A stretch of 32,000 bases of DNA from Nostoc sp. PCC 7120 = FACHB-418 (GCF_000009705.1 NC_003272.1:4590001-4622000); one strand, 5' to 3'. Positions 1,623 through 24,652 are shown, counted from the first letter of the stretch. The notes: generated by a model not told the origin, from the letters alone. A program made the numbers and translations.

Positions 1623-2102
1623 CGTAAGTAGTAAAGTCTTACCCCATACAGTTCGGTTATCTCCCTACTGGCAGGCAACAGAAGAGGGAGTTTTCGCGTC
1701 ACTATAGGTATAGTTAGCTTTTCTAAGGAACTTAAAAATCTTTTTATAAAAAAAGCAATTTTACACTATAATCCATATCCTTCTTTTGGCTACTTTACTA
1801 TCCACCTGATTTGTCTTAATATAAAACTAAGTGGAACTCATGCTGACTTCGTATTGAACAGTTGCTGCCAGTAACTGAAATAGAGAAAGAATTCTGGAAA
1901 ATCAACCACTGTGCTTGTAAGACATTAAAACATTGTCGGATGGTAGGGGAACCTATCTCAAGGCAGCGCCTTCTAGAAAACGGATACATAACATTGTTTA
2001 AGTTTGGTAGCGCCTTGAGTTCTGTGAGATGCGGACGATGTTTACTAGCTAAATTTGTTACTCAATATTGATTGTGTTTACGGAGTAGAGGACAACGCAC
2101 CA

Positions 2103-3086
2103 ATGCCTACTGTTAACACCCACACAGAAGACACAAACACCAAATTCACGGCTGATATGGTGCGAACCTATCTGCGCGAAATTGGTCGTGTACCCCTGCT
2201 CACCCGTGAGCAAGAGATTGTTTACGGGAAGCAGGTGCAGCAAATGATGTCGCTGATTGACGCTAAAGAGGCTTTAGCGAAAAAGTTGGATCGGGAACCG
2301 AGTTTACCAGAGTGGGCTGACCACGTTCAAAAGTCTGAAACAGAGGTGAAACAGACTGTAACTCAGGGTAAGCGAGCCAAGCAAAAAATGATTGAAGCGA
2401 ACCTGCGTTTGGTAGTGGCGATTGCCAAGAAATACCAAAAGCGGAATATGGAGTTCCTGGATTTAATCCAAGAAGGAACTCTAGGACTAGAAAGAGGCGT
2501 AGAGAAATTTGACCCAATGAGGGGTTATAAATTTTCAACCTACGCTTACTGGTGGATTCGCCAAGCGATTACCCGTGCGATCGCTCAACAAGGTCGGACT
2601 ATCAGGCTACCTATCCATATTACCGAGAAACTGAACAAAATCAAAAAAGTTCAGCGCGAACTGGCTCAAACTTTGGGGCGTTCTCCATCACCGGCAGAAA
2701 TCGCCAAAGAACTAGAACTAGAACCTGCTCAGATTCGTGAGTATCTAAACATGGCGCGTCAACCAGTTTCTCTAGATGTGAAAGTTGGTGACAACCAGGA
2801 TACAGAACTGCAAGAAATGCTCGAAGATGATGGGCCATCCCCTGAGTATTACACCACTCAAGAATTCTTGCGCCAAGACCTGAATACCCTCTTGGCAGAA
2901 CTCACACCCCAACAGCGAGAAGTCGTAGCCTTACGCTTTGGTTTGTTAGACGGTAACGAATTATCCTTGGCGAAAGTCGGTGAACGATTGAACCTCAGTC
3001 GTGAACGCGTCCGCCAATTAGAACATCAAGCACTAGCTCATCTGCGTCGCCGTCGAGCCAATGTTAAAGAATACGTCGCTAGCTAA
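2103..3086 (+). CDS. sigB2: Group-2 RpoD-family RNA polymerase sigma factor
   Basis: Motifs: [12 protein letters not shown], region 2 [14 protein letters not shown], region 4.2 LSRERVRQLE. The ORF opens at 2055, but ATG 2103 (MPTVNTH...) is the more plausible start. The symbol rests only on synteny recalled from PCC 7120 (alr3800). Confidence 0.85.
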   Translation: MPTVNTHTEDTNTKFTADMVRTYLREIGRVPLLTREQEIVYGKQVQQMMSLIDAKEALAKKLDREPSLPEWADHVQKSETEVKQTVTQGKRAKQKMIEANLRLVVAIAKKYQKRNMEFLDLIQEGTLGLERGVEKFDPMRGYKFSTYAYWWIRQAITRAIAQQGRTIRLPIHITEKLNKIKKVQRELAQTLGRSPSPAEIAKELELEPAQIREYLNMARQPVSLDVKVGDNQDTELQEMLEDDGPSPEYYTTQEFLRQDLNTLLAELTPQQREVVALRFGLLDGNELSLAKVGERLNLSRERVRQLEHQALAHLRRRRANVKEYVAS

Positions 3087-8115: not shown

Positions 8116-8146
8116 TTAGGGGTGTAGGGGTTTAGGGGTGTAGGGG
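8116..8146. repeat. GGGGTGT/GGGGTTT heptamer array, inverted relative to 7323-7351
   Basis: TTAGGGGTGTAGGGGTTTAGGGGTGTAGGGG. Its complement-type array CTTACACCCTCACACCCCCAAACCCCTACACCCC lies at the other end of the SDR gene. Confidence 0.7.
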
Positions 8147-8240: not shown

Positions 8241-9593
8241 ATGACTACACTTAATTTTCAACGTGCTAACACTTTGAAATCAGCCTTTCAAGCTTGTAGT
8301 GTGGAACCCTTGGAAGGGGAAGATATTGAAAAATACTATGTTGATTTATCAGCAGTCCGTAAAACTTCAGCCGTTGATAATGTTAGTACAATTTTAGACT
8401 TTCAAGAACCTGCGGATTTCACCACGATTTTATTTACTGGACATCGTGGTTGTGGCAAAAGCACAGAGTTAAAACGAATCCAAAAGCTTTGGCAAGAAAA
8501 TTATCATGTGATTTATTTAGAAGTGAATGAAGAAACAGATATTAATGATGCTAGTTATACAGATTTATATTTAATAGTTATTAAACAAGTAGAATATGAA
8601 CTGAGAAAATTAGACTTAAGCTTTGATAAACAACTATTGCAAAGTTTTGAGTCTTGGTTTAAGGAAATTACGAAAGAAACTGAGGAAAGTGTAGAAAAAT
8701 CCGTCAGCATTGAGGGAGAAGCAACGCTACAGCCCCAAGCGCCATTTATTGCTAAATTAATGGTGAAATTGCTGGCTCAGATTAAAGGTTCTGATAAACA
8801 GAAAACTACAATTCGCCAAACATTAGAAAAGGACTTATCGCGCCTGAAGGCAGATATTAATTTATTACTGGGTGATGCTTACATTAAACTCAGAAAGAAA
8901 TTTCCCCAGTTTAAAGGCCTATTAGTTATCTTTGATAATTTAGACCGAGTTCCGCCTGCGGTTGCAGACCACTTATTTTTCGATTATGCGGCGCAGCTAC
9001 AAGAACTGCACTGTACAATTATTTATACAGTCCCAATTTCTATTCTTTGTTCACCCAAAAATCCCCTTTGTCAATTTGATGGGAATCCTCATATTGTACC
9101 AATGGTGAATATTTATGAATTTGAACGTGATGTCTGCCATTTAAATTACAATCAAGCTGGGCTAGATGCGGTTGCTAGTTTGATTGAGAAGCGAGTAGAT
9201 GTTGATGCTGTATTTACTTCTCGCCAAGAATTGCTAGAGTTAACTAAAGCTAGTGGTGGTCATGTCCGTCAATTGATGCAGATGATGCGGAGTGCTTGTC
9301 AAACTGCTAGCACTAAAAAACATCCAAAAATTACGGCTGAAGATGTGGAATATGCTATCAAACAACAGCAATTTGGGTTTGAGAGGTTTATCCCTGAAGA
9401 ACATTATCATTATTTAGCTCAAGTGTGCATCAATAAAGATGTGAGCAAAGATGAAATTGGTCAATTGATGCTGTTTAACACTTCAGTTTTAGAATATAAC
9501 GGCAATAAACGCTGGAATTACCCCAATCCCGTGGTAAAACAAAATGAGTTCTTCCAAAAAGCCCTCACAGCAGCCCTCGCAGATAAATCTTAG
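8241..9593 (+). CDS. Uncharacterised AAA+/STAND-like P-loop NTPase
   Basis: Walker A FTGHRGCGKSTEL, Walker B-like LLVIFDNLDRV, possible sensor GGHVRQL. A long charged insert separates Walker A and Walker B. Confidence 0.75.
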   Translation: MTTLNFQRANTLKSAFQACSVEPLEGEDIEKYYVDLSAVRKTSAVDNVSTILDFQEPADFTTILFTGHRGCGKSTELKRIQKLWQENYHVIYLEVNEETDINDASYTDLYLIVIKQVEYELRKLDLSFDKQLLQSFESWFKEITKETEESVEKSVSIEGEATLQPQAPFIAKLMVKLLAQIKGSDKQKTTIRQTLEKDLSRLKADINLLLGDAYIKLRKKFPQFKGLLVIFDNLDRVPPAVADHLFFDYAAQLQELHCTIIYTVPISILCSPKNPLCQFDGNPHIVPMVNIYEFERDVCHLNYNQAGLDAVASLIEKRVDVDAVFTSRQELLELTKASGGHVRQLMQMMRSACQTASTKKHPKITAEDVEYAIKQQQFGFERFIPEEHYHYLAQVCINKDVSKDEIGQLMLFNTSVLEYNGNKRWNYPNPVVKQNEFFQKALTAALADKS

Positions 9594-11358
9594 TGCAGAA
9601 ATTGGGCAATTTATCAGCCTAAATCAAGAAGCTTTTGCTGAGTTACTGACTTTCATCGACTTTGCAGAAAAGTTTACCCTTGGTTTGGTGGAAGTTAACT
9701 TTCCTCCCGATGTGGATTTATTAATTGCGGCGTTACAAAACAACCCGGACTGTGAGAATATTCAATTTTTTATTCTTAAATGTGTCGATGCTAATCTGCG
9801 GTTTCTGCGAGATGAAATTATTAAAAGATTATCTGAGATTGAATTAGAATCTAATAAAAAGTTAGTCTTGATTGTCAGAGGTTTAGAAAACGCCATTGGG
9901 GTGTTCGGTGAATATCCCCCAGTATTACAAGACTTAAACTTTGTGCGGGATGCGTATAAAAGAACTGTCCCTCATCCCATATTATTTATTCTGCCAGATT
10001 ATGCCATCACTCGCCTAGCTAAATTCGCACCAGATTTTTGGGCTTGGCGTTCAGGAATATTTCGTTTTAAAACACCAGCAATAACAAAAGAAAATGCTAT
10101 TAATCAGGTTAAAAATAGCGAGATATTAGACAGGATAGAGCCGCCGGAGAAGCAAGAACGCATCGATTTATTACACCGCCTGTTAATGGAAGAAAAACCA
10201 ACTGGACAACAGGTAACAGATGGTAATCTCCGCAGCTATAGTAATATTTTACATCAACTTGGACAGGCTTATTTAAGTCATATAAAACCAGAAAAAGCTA
10301 GGGAATATTTAGAAGAAGCAGAAAGAATTTCTGAAAATTTACAAGATGAGTTATTTCAAGCAGAAGTTATTAACACTTTAGGCGATACCTACTCTCTACA
10401 AAGGCAATTTAATCTAGGAATCAAGTATTATGAGAAATCATTACTAATTGCTAGACGCTTAGAGAATCGCCTTAGTGAAATTAATGCTTTATTTAAACTA
10501 GGTAATGCTTATTTAGATTTGAGGCAATTTTCACAAGCTGCTAAATTTTATCAGCAGTGTTTAGACATTGAGCAAGAGATAGGCGATCGCTATAGCCAAG
10601 CAAGCACTTACCACGAATTGGGAAGAGTCGCCCAAAATTTACGGGAATGGGAACAAGCCAAAACCTATTATCAACAAGCTTTAGATATCACAATCGAATT
10701 TGGCGATCGCTATAACCAAGCAAGCACTTACCACCAGTTGGGAATGGTAGCCCAAAAATTAAGGAAATGGGAACAAGCCAAAACCTATTATCAACAAGCT
10801 TTGGATATCACAATCGAATTTGGCGATCGCTATAACCAAGCCAGAATTTACCACCAGTTGGCAATCGTAGCCCAAAATTTACGAGAATGGCAACAAGCCA
10901 AAACCTATTATCAACAAGCTTTGGATCTCAAAATTGAATTTGGTGATCGCTATAACCAAGCAAGCACTTACCACCAGTTGGGAATGGTAGCCCAAAATTT
11001 ACGGGAATGGGAACAAGCCAAAACCTATTATCAACAAGCTTTAGATATCACAATCGAATTTGGCGATCGCTATAGCCAAGCAAGCACTTACCACCAGTTG
11101 GGAATAGTAGCCCAAAATTTAAGGGAATGGGAACAAGCCAAAACCTATTACCAACAAGCGTTGGATCTCAAAATTGAATTTGGCGATCGCTATAGCCAAG
11201 CCAGCACCTATGGACAATTAGGAACGCTTGCAGAAGCGCAGGAAAATTATGTAGAGGCGAGGCTGAATTTGCAGACAGCTTTAGAAATATACGTTGAGTA
11301 TAAAGATGAACATTGGGCAGGGATAGCAAGAAAAATTTTAGACGAATTACCAGAATGA
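9544..11358 (+). CDS. Tetratricopeptide-repeat protein with a non-TPR N-terminal alpha/beta domain
   Basis: The ATG overlaps the upstream CDS by 50 nt. The first ~230 aa carry FTLGLVEVNF, LVLIVRGLE and PDFWAWRSGIFRF. About nine 40-aa TPR-like units follow (GDRYxQASTYHQLGxVAQNLREWEQAKTYYQQALDI). Confidence 0.85.
   Translation: MSSSKKPSQQPSQINLSAEIGQFISLNQEAFAELLTFIDFAEKFTLGLVEVNFPPDVDLLIAALQNNPDCENIQFFILKCVDANLRFLRDEIIKRLSEIELESNKKLVLIVRGLENAIGVFGEYPPVLQDLNFVRDAYKRTVPHPILFILPDYAITRLAKFAPDFWAWRSGIFRFKTPAITKENAINQVKNSEILDRIEPPEKQERIDLLHRLLMEEKPTGQQVTDGNLRSYSNILHQLGQAYLSHIKPEKAREYLEEAERISENLQDELFQAEVINTLGDTYSLQRQFNLGIKYYEKSLLIARRLENRLSEINALFKLGNAYLDLRQFSQAAKFYQQCLDIEQEIGDRYSQASTYHELGRVAQNLREWEQAKTYYQQALDITIEFGDRYNQASTYHQLGMVAQKLRKWEQAKTYYQQALDITIEFGDRYNQARIYHQLAIVAQNLREWQQAKTYYQQALDLKIEFGDRYNQASTYHQLGMVAQNLREWEQAKTYYQQALDITIEFGDRYSQASTYHQLGIVAQNLREWEQAKTYYQQALDLKIEFGDRYSQASTYGQLGTLAEAQENYVEARLNLQTALEIYVEYKDEHWAGIARKILDELPE
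10582..11220 (+). repeat. Five near-identical 120-bp tandem coding repeats plus a diverged sixth
   Basis: Units start at 10582, 10702, 10822, 10942, 11062 and 11182. Each opens with GGCGATCGC (HIP1), except the unit at 10942, which has GGTGATCGC. Confidence 0.9.
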
Positions 11359-17437: not shown

Positions 17438-18436
17438 ATGACCCTACCAACAGAAACATCATCACCAAAGAGTAGCGCCATGAAGACCGCTCCAACAGCC
17501 ACAGACCTCGTGCGGACTTACCTGCGTGAGATAGGACGTGTACCACTTTTAAGTCATGAAGAAGAAATTCGTTATGGTAAACAGGTACAGCGTTCCACAA
17601 CGTTGCAAGAAATGCGAGAGGAATTGGCAACCCAGTCAGGGCGTGAACCAAGCGTAGAAGAGTGGGCAAAAGCGGCCAATCTCAACCCAGCAGATTTGCT
17701 GGAAGCGATCGCCGATGGCGAAATAGCCAAGCGCAAAATGGTAGAAGCCAACTTGCGGCTAGTGGTATCCGTTGCCAAAAAATATATTAAACGTAACGTC
17801 GATTTATTAGACCTCATCCAAGAAGGTAGTATTGGAATGCAACGGGGTGTAGAGAAATTTGACCCCACCAAGGGTTATAGATTTTCTACCTACGCCTACT
17901 GGTGGATACGTCAAGCCATCACGCGGGCGATCGCTGAAAAAGCGCGTACTATCCGCCTACCCATCCATATCACCGAGAAGCTGAACAAAATTAAAAAAGC
18001 CCAGCGTCAGCTCTCCCAGAGATTGGGACGTGCGCCTACAGCCGGTGAACTAGCCAACGAATTAGAACTAACACCCAAACAAGTTAGGGAATATTTAGAA
18101 AAAGCCCGTCTCCCCTTATCCTTAGATTTACGCTTAGGGGACAACTACGACACCGAACTAGGAGAAATGTTGGAAGATCCAGGCGCTTCTCCGGAAGACT
18201 TTGTTATGCAATCTTCCCTATCCAACGACCTAGAGGTACTGATGGAGCAATTAACGCCCCAGCAGAAAGAAGTAATCACACTCCGCTTTGGCTTAATCGA
18301 TGGGCAAGCCCTAACTCTAGCAAGAATCGGCGAAATACTTAACATCAGCCGCGAACGAGTCAGACAAATCGAAAGAGAAGCGCTTACCAAATTGCGTAAG
18401 TCTAAAGCCAACATGGGTGAGTATTTGGCAAGTTAG
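17438..18436 (+). CDS. sigD: Group-2 RpoD-family RNA polymerase sigma factor
   Basis: Motifs: [39 protein letters not shown] 17480 is an alternative start. The symbol comes from recalled synteny (carB then sigD, alr3810). Confidence 0.85.
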
Positions 18437-22162: not shown

Positions 22163-24652
22163 ATGACTCTTGATAATGCAGGTAACACATTAACTACTGC
22201 TAAAAAACTCTCTGTATCCTCTAATATCCAGACTTTTGCAGACCGAGTGGATTCGACAGATCCTAATGATTTTTATAGTTTCAGTCTGTCCGCTCGTAGT
22301 AGTCTTAATATTGCTGTTGATGGGTTGAGTGCTAATGCAGATTTGCAGTTAATTAGAGATACTAACAGCAATGGTTTAGTTGATAGCGGCGAAGTTATCA
22401 GTGGTTCTAACAAAACTGGCCGCAGCAGTGAATCAATTCGCAGGACACTAGATGCCGGTAATTATTTCATCAGAGTCTATTCCAATACTGGCGATACTAA
22501 CTACAATCTCAAGGTATTTGAAAATTTCGCCCCAACTGCACTAGAGTTTAAGCTGAATGACAGCAGCCTCAAAGCAACAGATACACTCAGCATTAATAGC
22601 GGTTGGGTATCAGATAGCAACGGTGTCAGCGATCTTTCCAAGGTAGATTTCCGTATACAAAGAGCAAACGGAAGTTGGATAGATGTAGCTGATGCTACTA
22701 AATTTACTGTCGATCCTAACAATACAAATAAAGCAAGTTTCAGCCACAATTTGTCTCTCAACAGCTTGAATTTAGCGGCTGGTGCTTATACTCTCCAAGG
22801 TATAGCTTATGACAAGACTGGTGCTACTAGTAATACAGTACGGTTAGGCCTGACAATTGAGAATCCTGAACTCACGTTAACTAATGCGAAAAAAATAACT
22901 TTATCTGCAAAGACCCAGACTTTTGCAGATAGGGTGGATTCAACAAATATCAACGATTTCTACAGTTTCAGTTTGTCTGCTCGTGGTAACTTGAATCTCG
23001 TTGTCGATGGTTTGAGTGCCAATGCAGATGTACAGATTATTAGAGACTCCAACAGCAATGGTTTGTTTGATGGTGGTGAAGTTGTTACTGGTGCTTACAA
23101 AACTGGAAGCGGTAGTGAATCCATTCGCAGAACTCTAGATGCTGGAAATTATTTCATTAGAGTCTATTCACAAAGTGGCAATACTAATTACAATCTCAAG
23201 GTATTTGAGAATTTTGCCCCAACTGCACTAGATTTTAAGCTGAATAACACCAGCCTCAAACCAACAGACACCCTCAGTATCAATAGTGCTTGGGTATCGG
23301 ATAGCAACGGTGCGAGTGACCTTTCCAAAGTAGATTTCCGCATTCAAAGAGCAGACGGAAGTTGGATAAATGTAGCTGATACTACTAAATTTACTCCTGA
23401 TTCTAGCAATGCAAATAAGGCAAGTTTCAGCTACAGTTTGTCTTTAAGCAGTTTGAATCTGGCAGTTGGTACTTATACTCTCCAAGGAATAGCTTACGAC
23501 AAGACCGGTGCTGCTAGTAATACAGTCAACCAGACATTTACAGTAACGACCACACCAACCACAACAACACCAATCACCACAACACCAACGACTGTTCAAG
23601 ATTGGTTCAGCCAAAATCTTCTCGACCAACAACTCATTACATTAACCCGCAACTTAGCATCTGACGGTAACTTAAGCCGCCAGGATATGCTGGATATCTT
23701 CAGAAATGTTCAAGATGATTCTAAGGTTGATGCTAATGAAGTAAAAGACCTCAGAACATTGGTGGGTGCTAGCACTCGTTTTAGTATGCAAGACCCTGTG
23801 AAGTGGCTATCCACACAGGTTGCTAATGGTGCGTTTGTAGATATGGCGGCTAGTAATTTTGAATCTAGTTTAGTTGGTCGCTGGTTCTTAGGTACAATAG
23901 CACCAACACCCGTCTTTAATGGTAAGACTCTCACCTACACCACAGTTACAGGTAATCTTTTCGGTAGCGCTAGCGAAGCGCGAATTGGTGATATTGACCA
24001 AGGAGGGCTAGGTGATTGTGCATTTTTAGCTGCTTTAGGTGCAACTTTTGGTCGTCAGTTTAATGATGCAGGTAACACTTCTAGTTCTGTAATTAACAGT
24101 ATGATTACAGATAATGGTGACAATACATACACCATGCGCTTTTATCAGAATGGTGTAGCAGAATATGTTACTGTTGACCGTCGTATTGCTACCAGCATAT
24201 CTGCTAAAAGAAATGATGGTGTTATTTGGGTTGCTTTAGTTGAAAAAGCTTATGCCCAATGGCGGGAATGGAGAGAAAATACTCCTGGTTATAACCTCAT
24301 TGGTAATGGCGATACCCTTAATCGCCCACTTGGATTTATTACAGGCCAAGCAAGCACATATGTAAGCTCTAGTAGCACTAATCTTTACTCTGCTATTGAG
24401 ACTGCTTTAGCGAACGGTAGAGCTGTAGCCACAGCAAGAATAAGTAGTACTGATAGTCTAGCCATAGGTGGTCATGCCTATTCTGTAACAAATGTTTACA
24501 CAAATAGTAGCGGTGAAAAAAGATTTGTAGTGCGTAACCCCTGGGGTGTTGATGGGCGAAGCGTGCGCGGAGCTAATGACGGATTTATTGACGTATCCTT
24601 AGACGAGTTCAAACAGTCTTTTAATTATGGGGTTAGTATTGTTTCTGCATAA
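22163..24652 (+). CDS. Calpain-like (peptidase C2) cysteine protease with two N-terminal PPC + Ig-like modules
   Basis: Catalytic triad context: QGGLGDCAFLAALGA (Cys codon 24017-24019), GGHAYSV (His codon 24473-24475), VRNPWG. The N-terminus shows the pre-peptidase C-terminal domain signature DPNDFYSFSL...AGNYFIRVY twice. A Thr/Pro linker TTTPTTTTPITTTPTT follows. Confidence 0.85.
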   Translation: MTLDNAGNTLTTAKKLSVSSNIQTFADRVDSTDPNDFYSFSLSARSSLNIAVDGLSANADLQLIRDTNSNGLVDSGEVISGSNKTGRSSESIRRTLDAGNYFIRVYSNTGDTNYNLKVFENFAPTALEFKLNDSSLKATDTLSINSGWVSDSNGVSDLSKVDFRIQRANGSWIDVADATKFTVDPNNTNKASFSHNLSLNSLNLAAGAYTLQGIAYDKTGATSNTVRLGLTIENPELTLTNAKKITLSAKTQTFADRVDSTNINDFYSFSLSARGNLNLVVDGLSANADVQIIRDSNSNGLFDGGEVVTGAYKTGSGSESIRRTLDAGNYFIRVYSQSGNTNYNLKVFENFAPTALDFKLNNTSLKPTDTLSINSAWVSDSNGASDLSKVDFRIQRADGSWINVADTTKFTPDSSNANKASFSYSLSLSSLNLAVGTYTLQGIAYDKTGAASNTVNQTFTVTTTPTTTTPITTTPTTVQDWFSQNLLDQQLITLTRNLASDGNLSRQDMLDIFRNVQDDSKVDANEVKDLRTLVGASTRFSMQDPVKWLSTQVANGAFVDMAASNFESSLVGRWFLGTIAPTPVFNGKTLTYTTVTGNLFGSASEARIGDIDQGGLGDCAFLAALGATFGRQFNDAGNTSSSVINSMITDNGDNTYTMRFYQNGVAEYVTVDRRIATSISAKRNDGVIWVALVEKAYAQWREWRENTPGYNLIGNGDTLNRPLGFITGQASTYVSSSSTNLYSAIETALANGRAVATARISSTDSLAIGGHAYSVTNVYTNSSGEKRFVVRNPWGVDGRSVRGANDGFIDVSLDEFKQSFNYGVSIVSA
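22187..23545 (+). repeat. Internal tandem duplication, about 2 x 687 bp (PPC + Ig-like module)
   Basis: TTAACTACTGCTAAAAAA at 22190 aligns with TTAACTAATGCGAAAAAA at 22877. The two protein modules are roughly four-fifths identical by eye. Confidence 0.85.

Follow-up and report, generated by a model that had tools for sequence, protein, structure and literature searches.

We analyzed a 32,000-nt stretch of the genome of Nostoc sp. PCC 7120 = FACHB-418 (NC_003272.1:4590001-4622000), referred to below as the window, and focused on a pair of overlapping genes on its + strand. Throughout, gene A is the NTPase gene (8241-9593), gene B is that of its tetratricopeptide repeat (TPR) partner (9544-11358), and coordinates are those of the window. 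Going by accession numbering only, the locus names would be alr3806 for A and alr3807 for B. Open reading frame (ORF) calls agreed with a preliminary description of this DNA, which had proposed two ORFs of 450 and 604 aa with a 50-nt overlap, B lying in the +1 frame, and a TAA (9535-9537) two codons ahead of the B ATG. The best-supported account of the locus, which concerns structure and organization only, is that an active AAA+/STAND-type NTPase and a pseudo-AAA+-TPR partner form a conserved and presumably co-expressed pair. The features of the pair are as follows (pLDDT, predicted local distance difference test).

8241-9593, + strand: gene A, AAA+/STAND-type NTPase, 450 aa, ATG start; its sequence is that of BAB75505.1 of Nostoc/Anabaena PCC 7120
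8439-8465, + strand: Walker A motif (P-loop) GHRGCGKST, residues 67-75 of A; G70, G72, and K73 invariant in 42 homologs
8556-8906, + strand: helical insert of ~117 residues between strands b2 and b3 of A; helices 106-220 in the model; the site of the KAP insert, here without a transmembrane segment
8919-8948, + strand: Walker B motif LLVIFDNLDR, residues 227-236 of A; D232 invariant; strand 227-232 in the model
9141-9326, + strand: AAA+ lid or helical domain of A, with SGGHVR; helices 305-358; Cdc6_lid match at residues 334-373
9252-9269, + strand: SGGHVR motif, residues 338-343 of A, at the sensor-2 or STAND "GxP" position; G339 and G340 invariant, R343 nearly so
9327-9536, + strand: winged-helix domain of A, residues 363-432; helices 366-383, 386-398, and 405-412, strands 416-419 and 425-428
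9544-9593, + strand: 50-nt out-of-frame overlap; read in one frame as the final helix of A, EFFQKALTAALADKS, and in the other as the tail at the N-terminus of B, MSSSKKPSQQPSQINL
9544-11358, + strand: gene B, partner with a predicted pseudo-AAA+ head and nine TPR-type units, 604 aa, ATG start
9580-10194, + strand: predicted AAA+-like alpha/beta domain of B without a P-loop; five strands alternating with helices, pLDDT 82.6
9934-9951, + strand: N132-x-x-R135 motif of the B head, family-invariant
10222-11301, + strand: nine 40-residue TPR-type units, residues 227-586 of B; TPR_12 match, E = 2.5e-57
10582-11207, + strand: 5.2 tandem copies of a 120-nt unit (90% identity; Tandem Repeats Finder score 1028), encoding near-identical "GDRY..." TPR units

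For gene A, an alignment of 42 homologs with 24-76% identity was used both to assess conservation and to build an AlphaFold2 model. All of the NTPase motifs picked out in the preliminary description fall on invariant or nearly invariant columns of this alignment, and with its Walker motifs intact, A is, as far as sequence can tell, catalytically competent. The model is confident (pLDDT 90.4, predicted template modeling score 0.90) and places the strands of an AAA+ core at residues 62-67, 89-94, 227-232, 259-265, and 284-286, with a last helix, 436-449, following the winged helix. Confidence drops in the middle of the insert, where pLDDT falls to 56-73; conserved residues of the insert are D108, W139, F140, P168, R192, and N207. 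No transmembrane segment was found in A, as the top 19-residue hydropathy value is only 1.18 and lies in strand b4, outside the insert (106-222), and this argues against a classical membrane KAP protein.

A Foldseek search of the PDB with the A model returned archaeal Cdc6/Orc (1fnn, 1.4e-6) as the best match, with further matches to ORC2 and other ORC/Cdc6 subunits, CED-4, the archaeal ATPase SSO1545, TnsC, RuvBL, RFC, and RdrA (8hra). The Foldseek probability was 1.00 for Cdc6, RFC, RuvB, and TnsC, at template modeling (TM) scores of ~0.36-0.41 and ~11% identity (TM-scores were 0.36-0.44 for A and the B head together). On the strength of the model, A has the layout of nucleotide-binding domain (NBD), lid, and winged helix that is common to initiators and STAND proteins, and is not a member of one family. 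The predicted fold thus agrees with the earlier suggestion of a STAND/AAA+-like NTPase.

Sequence profiles place A less sharply. KAP_NTPase (PF07693) was the sole Pfam model to pass its gathering threshold, with a weak and partial match (26.8 bits vs. 20) between residues 46-245 of A and profile positions 6-171 of 293. Pfam STAND and AAA models scored below their cut-offs (NACHT 18.7 vs. 26.7, nSTAND_NTPase5 15.1 vs. 34, AAA_16 17.3 vs. 32.6, and ATPase_2 19.2 vs. 33.2), and no Pfam STAND family (NACHT, nSTAND3, nSTAND5, or NPHP3_N) reached threshold. The lid region, residues 329-391, gave weak Pfam matches to Cdc6_lid, AAA_assoc_2, and the LonB lid. Searched by sequence against the PDB, A returned weak P-loop matches only, and there was a weak profile match to 8fnu, a "KAP NTPase domain-containing protein."

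Assignment to the AAA+ superfamily fits both the Walker A/B pattern and a core whose lid bears a near-invariant arginine (sensor 2). No conserved arginine that could serve as a trans arginine finger was found between b4 (259-265) and b5 (284-286) in the 42-sequence alignment; to our knowledge, STAND proteins likewise do without one. Of the features expected of a STAND protein, the model of A shows the tripartite nucleotide-binding oligomerization domain (NOD) of NBD, helical domain, and winged helix. Repeats and an effector are not fused to it, as A ends after the winged helix and one further helix, and none of the curated family models (NACHT, NB-ARC, nSTAND, AAA_16, and ATPase_2) matched A above its cut-off. 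The winged helix has a net charge of -3 in the window (family mean -1.3) and is probably regulatory rather than DNA-binding.

For the head of B (residues 1-240), AlphaFold2 was run on 28 homologs. The preliminary description had read this region as an NTPase-like domain that lacks its P-loop, and structure prediction upholds that reading, because the model is AAA+-like and strand b1 (LGLVEV) is followed by NFPPD where GxxxxGK[ST] would stand. Strand b3, KLVLIVRGLE, ends in GLE. Residues invariant across the superfamily of heads are N132 and R135 (LNFVRD), P145, and D164 (APDFW). With its P-loop lost, the head is unable to bind nucleotide canonically. Its best Foldseek match was Orc3 (7jk2_C, E = 7e-5), and RFC subunits, Cdc48/ClpC domains, and the Sir3 AAA+-like domain also matched; Orc3 and Sir3 are themselves non-catalytic AAA+-like proteins.

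By sequence, residues 1-226 of B matched no Pfam, NCBIfam, or PDB family. A profile-profile comparison of A with the B head (hhalign) gave a probability of 0.5%, i.e. no sequence relationship, which means that B did not arise by recent duplication of A. When the B-head profile was searched for other architectures, the top 120 matches were close TPR partners alone, and the defense-system models of PADLOC matched B only through generic TPR models.

The C-terminal part of B bears out the earlier count of about nine TPR units, and Pfam scores were 191 bits for TPR_12, 139 for TPR_2, 123 for TPR_1, and 122 for TPR_10. The HIP1 octamer GCGATCGC, which encodes G-D-R, opens five of the six starts of the 120-nt unit in the tandem array; the 32-kb window holds 32 HIP1 sites. 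In assemblies with an identical NTPase, the partner can be 444 aa rather than 604 aa long, i.e. four units shorter, which may be a true change in copy number or a collapse in short-read assemblies. Other cyanobacteria carry two to seven copies of the GDRY-type unit, which are up to 95-100% identical within one protein. B stops 18 residues past its last TPR unit, and no CHAT domain follows at its C-terminus in the window.

The B ATG is made from the A codons AAT-GAG (N-E), and B residues 1-11 have a pLDDT below 50. Since the ATG falls at the start of the last helix of A, the overlap encodes an ordered C-terminal helix of A together with a disordered tail of B. This arrangement recurs in relatives. 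Overlaps occur in 61 of 76 pairs and reach at least 38 nt in 47 of them, and B is in the +1 frame in 63 of the 76. The ATG sits within a conserved [N/D]-[A/E] dipeptide (xAT-Gxx) that opens the last helix of A ([ND][AE]Fxx A), and its embedded position is identical in cyanobacteria and in Acidobacteriota (loci L068, L069, and L073; loci of relatives are numbered with an L). From the comparison of these loci, the overlap is an old, maintained arrangement, and co-expression with translational coupling would explain it most simply.

The NTPase had been called an orphan in the preliminary description, which proved wrong. In a library clustered at 50% identity, relatives of A at E<=1e-3 form 2,652 clusters, mostly of ~430-470 aa, and a word-indexed search gave 1,244 matches, those in Nostocales, Microcoleus, Tychonema, and Coleofasciculus being 73-95% identical. 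Scanning a single genome per species gave at least 593 relatives of A, from which 80 loci were taken for pairing analysis. Directly downstream of A, tblastn found a homolog of the B head in 76 of the 80, including loci of Acidobacteriota and Chloroflexota in which A is 34-37% and the B head 25-34% identical to the window. A 77th locus (L067) has a 609-aa ORF overlapping A by 50 nt, and in the remaining three the NTPase match is truncated (L062 and L063) or lies at a contig end (L078). TPRs were present in all 33 partners scanned. The question of whether the two genes co-occur and overlap elsewhere is thus answered: the pair is kept, mostly overlapping, across phyla. Identity to the window is correlated between A and the B head (r = 0.90 over 76 pairs), from which we conclude that the two have diverged in step, as one unit.

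Truncated or internally deleted copies also exist (L065, L084, L062, L063, and P0283), with the front of the NTPase running into the middle of the partner head; in P0283, NTPase residues 162-287 are joined to the partner from residue 15. These joined copies are apparently products of decay.

Beyond the pair itself, no neighbor recurs, so the module is a self-contained two-gene unit without a conserved third gene. No Pfam family was repeated among 48 genes flanking 13 non-cyanobacterial loci, and among 106 genes flanking 55 cyanobacterial loci only Nostoc-specific synteny and a few Uma2 genes were. The flank synteny of the window (the deoxyhypusine-synthase-like gene, SDR, Dps, and carB) is common to the closest relatives only. 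Uma2 genes make up six of the 106, and in one Nostoc locus (L010:8654-9703) the partner ORF runs on into Uma2 (PD-(D/E)xK nuclease-like). Uma2 is very abundant in cyanobacteria, so these neighbors could be there by chance.

As the preliminary description held, no nuclease or protease effector is encoded in the pair of the window or by its neighbors. Two relatives in the window's own clade, with A 61-65% identical, have partners that end in a CHAT caspase-like domain: L060 from Microcystis ichthyoblabe (1,232 aa, E = 9e-41, L060:9983-11032) and L031 from Ca. Parabeggiatoa (1,096 aa, E = 1e-52, L031:6510-7559). The Microcystis domain keeps its His/Cys motifs (HFSCHG and LFCDES), and in the Parabeggiatoa domain Gly replaces the catalytic Cys (LSAGETG). 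In a neighbor-joining tree of A, cyanobacterial sequences form one group, and a second cyanobacterial lineage contains extra Nostoc paralogs and a clear transfer to the gammaproteobacterium Parabeggiatoa. At 65% identity in A, the sequences suggest that Parabeggiatoa acquired its pair from cyanobacteria.

More distant paralogs of A on megaplasmids (24-32% identity) are followed by WD40 proteins of more than 1,600 aa, which run past the retrieved stretch. The N-termini of these WD40 partners share the B head (hhalign probability 96-98%). The WD40-paired paralogs are L087 on Acaryochloris pREB2 and L088 on Nostoc ATCC 53789 pNsp_c, and the pREB2 pair adjoins a NACHT protein, an integrase, and a HicAB toxin-antitoxin module.

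The complete NTPase module, with its motifs intact, also turns up in three other settings: joined to HipA_C, joined to an EAD1-bearing ABC-type ATPase, and within a MoxR-adjacent protein. In the first case (L085:2803-7441), a hipB-like helix-turn-helix gene and a Couple_hipA gene lie ahead of a 765-aa HipA_C::NTPase fusion, after which comes the usual TPR partner with an 11-nt overlap; here a toxin-antitoxin kinase module has thus been joined to the pair. In the second (L086:5001-8911), a 1,002-aa protein combines a divergent NTPase with an AAA_15/AAA_21 ABC-type ATPase bearing an EAD1 insert; after it comes a 299-aa protein that weakly matches HNH, and the same genome has a canonical NTPase-TPR pair (L048). 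In the third (L089:3324-6248, Nostoc sp. C057 plasmid p057_J), the module makes up the C-terminal half of a protein of 974 aa, "SAV_2336 N-terminal domain-related," whose gene comes immediately after that of a MoxR ATPase; HEAT-repeat and FGE-sulfatase genes are close by.

Based on these structural and comparative data, we propose that the pair is a conserved bicistronic module encoding a two-protein NLR/STAND-like ATP switch, a reading to which we give an even chance. In the proposed mechanism, the overlap would couple translation such that A and B are made together. The pseudo-AAA+ head of B could then dock on A through an AAA+:AAA+ interface and form a hetero-oligomer, by analogy with the inactive subunits in ORC, RFC, and Mg-chelatase ChlI/ChlD, with a possible contribution from the N-x-x-R motif. 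The TPR array of B would bind a ligand or client, or act as a scaffold, and thereby gate ATP-dependent assembly. In the effector-less form, the output may be the assembled complex or a recruited protein whose gene lies elsewhere; for some relatives, it could be the CHAT caspase-like protease fused to B.

Several observations weigh against a switch of this kind. The sub-clades of the A tree largely follow taxonomy (Nostocales, Leptolyngbya/Phormidesmis, Pseudanabaena, and Microcystis/Gomphosphaeria), and identities in A are 80-88% within Nostocales and 55-68% toward the relatives in Pseudanabaena and Leptolyngbya. No relatives were found in phage genomes or IMG/VR viral contigs. Searches of PADLOC with A returned only mad8 (23.5 bits), PDC-S01 (18.4), and VakA (16.8), weak matches at the level of the P-loop that do not rise above noise. 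The window neighbors are housekeeping genes: sigma factors, a cobalamin adenosyltransferase, a deoxyhypusine-synthase-like gene, an SDR, Dps, and carB. CHAT occurs in just two of ~60 complete partners, one of them without the catalytic Cys, and most members are effector-less. The TPR-unit consensus is conserved between genera, so there is no sign of diversifying recognition. Finally, because some copies are truncated or deleted, the pair must be dispensable in at least some genomes.

An Avs-like anti-phage role, after the Avs type raised in the preliminary description, is not supported: the clade tracks cyanobacterial taxonomy, remains 55-88% identical across orders, has housekeeping neighbors, and matches no PADLOC system above noise. 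The idea of an NLR-like logic gains from the CHAT-ended partners and the WD40-paired plasmid paralogs that share the head. Since the clade of the window is chromosomal, largely vertical, and strongly conserved, its fixation may reflect a cellular role in surveillance or regulation and not participation in a fast arms race.

Much of the same evidence would also fit a housekeeping or regulatory AAA+ complex with no role in conflict, such as a core cyanobacterial assembly factor or an ATP-dependent regulator. The TPR array of B would then be an adaptor for a conserved client, and active and inactive AAA+ subunits would be combined as in ChlI/ChlD and the clamp loaders. Such a complex would account for the high conservation and largely taxonomy-congruent tree, the housekeeping neighbors, the conserved TPR-unit consensus, and the lack of an effector, of phage or viral copies, and of a defense-family match, and it is favored further by the planktonic Nostocales (Dolichospermum, Aphanizomenon, and Sphaerospermopsis), which keep A at ~80% identity. 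It does not sit well, however, with a CHAT protease on partners within the same cyanobacterial clade, nor with megaplasmid paralogs that lie near NACHT, HicAB, and integrase genes and have WD40 partners. The NTPase module is also found recombined with proteins characteristic of conflict systems (HipA, EAD1, and MoxR-linked), additional paralogs or decayed copies are present in several genomes, and neither a functional neighbor nor a pathway link recurs. We regard a purely housekeeping complex as possible but doubtful.

A more specific version of the two-protein switch is a split, bacterial apoptosome-like platform, in which the hetero-oligomer of A and B would, in most cyanobacteria, both recruit and activate on its TPR scaffold a separate CHAT/caspase-type protease or another effector. 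Microcystis would have kept the protease fused, and the conserved chromosomal copy of Nostocales would act as a fixed cell-fate or cell-death checkpoint of filamentous cyanobacteria, not as a mobile defense gene. We consider this version improbable.

The remaining explanations have fared worse. An Orc/Cdc6-like DNA-binding initiator or loader, acting in replication or DNA transactions, is suggested by the best structural matches (archaeal Cdc6/Orc and eukaryotic ORC/Cdc6 subunits for A, Orc3 for the B head), but TM-scores of 0.36-0.44 at ~11% identity amount to a generic likeness of AAA+, lid, and winged helix. The orc1/cdc6 model TIGR02928 gave 20.1 bits against a cut-off of 181.3, the partners are TPR, WD40, and CHAT proteins, none of them DNA-related, and we rejected a DNA-binding role of this type because the winged helix is net acidic; it has very little left to recommend it.

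A single fused NTPase-TPR STAND chain, made by a programmed +1 frameshift within 9544-9593 at the A-runs of the overlap, had been raised in the preliminary description. The long +1 overlap is conserved, and at the A-run CAAAAAG in the window tRNA-Lys could in principle re-pair in +1. This A-run is not kept, however, and relatives show TTCCAACAAGC or TTCCAAACTGTC at that place; no slippery or stall motif in the overlap is conserved across loci. The zero frame has no stalling stop or rare codon, and RNA structure around the B start is not significant (z = -0.88). In three loci (L052, L055, and L077) A and B share one frame with a stop and 6 nt between them, and in four others (L031, L041, L043, and L056) they are separated by gaps of 130-400 nt. 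The ORFs of the 76 scored loci (L005-L084) include none that continues from an intact A into B, and joined products are truncated or deleted copies only, such as P0283. A frameshifted fusion is thus highly unlikely.

We give as little credence to the overlap being an annotation artefact with the true B start past the A stop: B residues 1-11 are disordered and poorly conserved, but M1 of B is invariant or nearly so in the alignments, the ATG lies at the same A codon position from cyanobacteria to Acidobacteriota, the first helix of B begins at residue 13, ahead of the A stop at B codons 16-17, and the B frame opens just two codons before the ATG.

We compared the pair with several known systems. 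Like STAND/NLR proteins with TPR sensors (Apaf-1/CED-4, Avs, NB-ARC-TPR, and MalT), A combines NBD, helical, and winged-helix domains with intact Walker A/B motifs, and CED-4 is among its best structural matches. The array of B is of the TPR_12/TPR_10/MalT type, with near-identical internal repeats in variable copy number, and caspase-like CHAT domains occur in relatives. Unlike in those proteins, the repeats of the window are on a separate chain that has a dead AAA+-like head of its own, an N-terminal effector is missing, the clade is conserved and largely vertical rather than patchy, and PADLOC gives no Avs match.

KAP NTPases (PF07693, which include PifA and RdrA of RADAR, the latter as deposited under 8fnu) resemble A in that the Pfam threshold is passed, in the large insert between Walker A and B, and in the weak profile match to 8fnu and structural match to RdrA (8hra). 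They reportedly have transmembrane helices inserted in the P-loop domain, as Aravind et al. are said to have described in 2004. The insert of A has no transmembrane helices, the profile match of A is partial (6-171 of 293), and A differs from RADAR, which couples its ATPase with a deaminase, in both partner and architecture. ORC, RFC (delta-type), and ChlI-ChlD also place an active AAA+ protein beside a P-loop-less partner. Orc3 and RFC are the best matches of the B head, and ChlD has a dead AAA+ domain fused to a protein-interaction module, as B does. No sequence homology to these complexes was detected, however, and the pair has no DNA-related or chelatase context.

The MoxR-vWA ternary conflict systems (iSTAND/VMAP; PMC7159879) are similarly enriched in cyanobacteria and in filamentous or multicellular bacteria, and they too make use of NTPase domains that are inactive, of scaffolds built from TPR, WD40, or HEAT repeats, and of caspase-like domains. 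The A module is present in full in a MoxR-adjacent protein on a Nostoc plasmid. The window, in contrast, has no MoxR or vWA gene, its NTPase is predicted to be active, and it is the partner that carries the inactive domain. The NCBIfam family "P-loop ATPase, Sll1717 family" (NF047389) is alike in length (a 454-position profile) and weakly matches the P-loop domain and insert (E = 7e-7), but at 28.6 bits vs. a cut-off of 75, A is not a member.

A possible earlier sighting is the "Npun2340/2341" family, reportedly placed in the MNS clade by Leipe, Koonin, and Aravind 2004, which might be the A-B pair. In the searchable literature, Npun2340 and the "MNS clade" returned one passing mention, Sll1717 no paper, and alr3805, alr3806, and alr3807 nothing. 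The pair is absent from the text of Kaur et al. 2020 (PMC7159879) and is not described in Kaur 2021, in a 2026 STAND survey, or in a 2024 diversity-generating retroelement (DGR) paper. As the preliminary description supposed, no account of such a layout, or of the A-B pair itself, was found in the searchable literature.

Some further features of the window may be noted. A HerA-like ATPase of 484 aa (DUF87, E = 1.9e-33) lies at the left edge (94-1548), and at 22163-24652 an 829-aa protein combines two PPC pre-peptidase domains with a cysteine protease domain of the calpain family (Peptidase_C2). Two sigma-70-family sigma-factor genes (2055-3086 and 17438-18436) lie within 15 kb and flank the region. 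G-quadruplex-type repeats occur at 8119-8146, 1560, 3165, 3208, 7168, 7330, 16696, and 19185, mostly in intergenic spacers. The G-rich short tandem repeat GGGGTGTAGGGGTTTAGGGGTGTAGGGG, ~95 nt upstream of the A ATG, was rejected as a regulatory element of the pair: such a repeat is upstream in only 4 of 76 loci, and similar repeats lie in other spacers of the window. Scans of the window for Rfam families and tRNAs were negative, and a promoter/terminator scan, which gave fewer sites than shuffled sequence did, was uninformative.

Switches of the NLR/STAND type have a central place in the immunity and cell death of animals, plants, fungi, and bacteria, and those that have been characterized are typically single chains of effector, NTPase, and sensor. 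The module analyzed here departs from that layout, with its sensor repeats on a second protein that has a dead AAA+ domain. It departs from known switches too in that it is usually without an effector and keeps an out-of-frame overlap of 40-50 nt from cyanobacteria to Acidobacteriota. The embedded start codon is a clean natural example for the study of translational coupling across long overlaps. If A and B co-assemble, they would offer a simple, tractable case of a pseudo-ATPase subunit regulating an AAA+/STAND switch, in Anabaena/Nostoc PCC 7120, a model strain open to genetics. Co-assembly would also give a function to a widespread and strongly conserved pair of "hypothetical" cyanobacterial genes.

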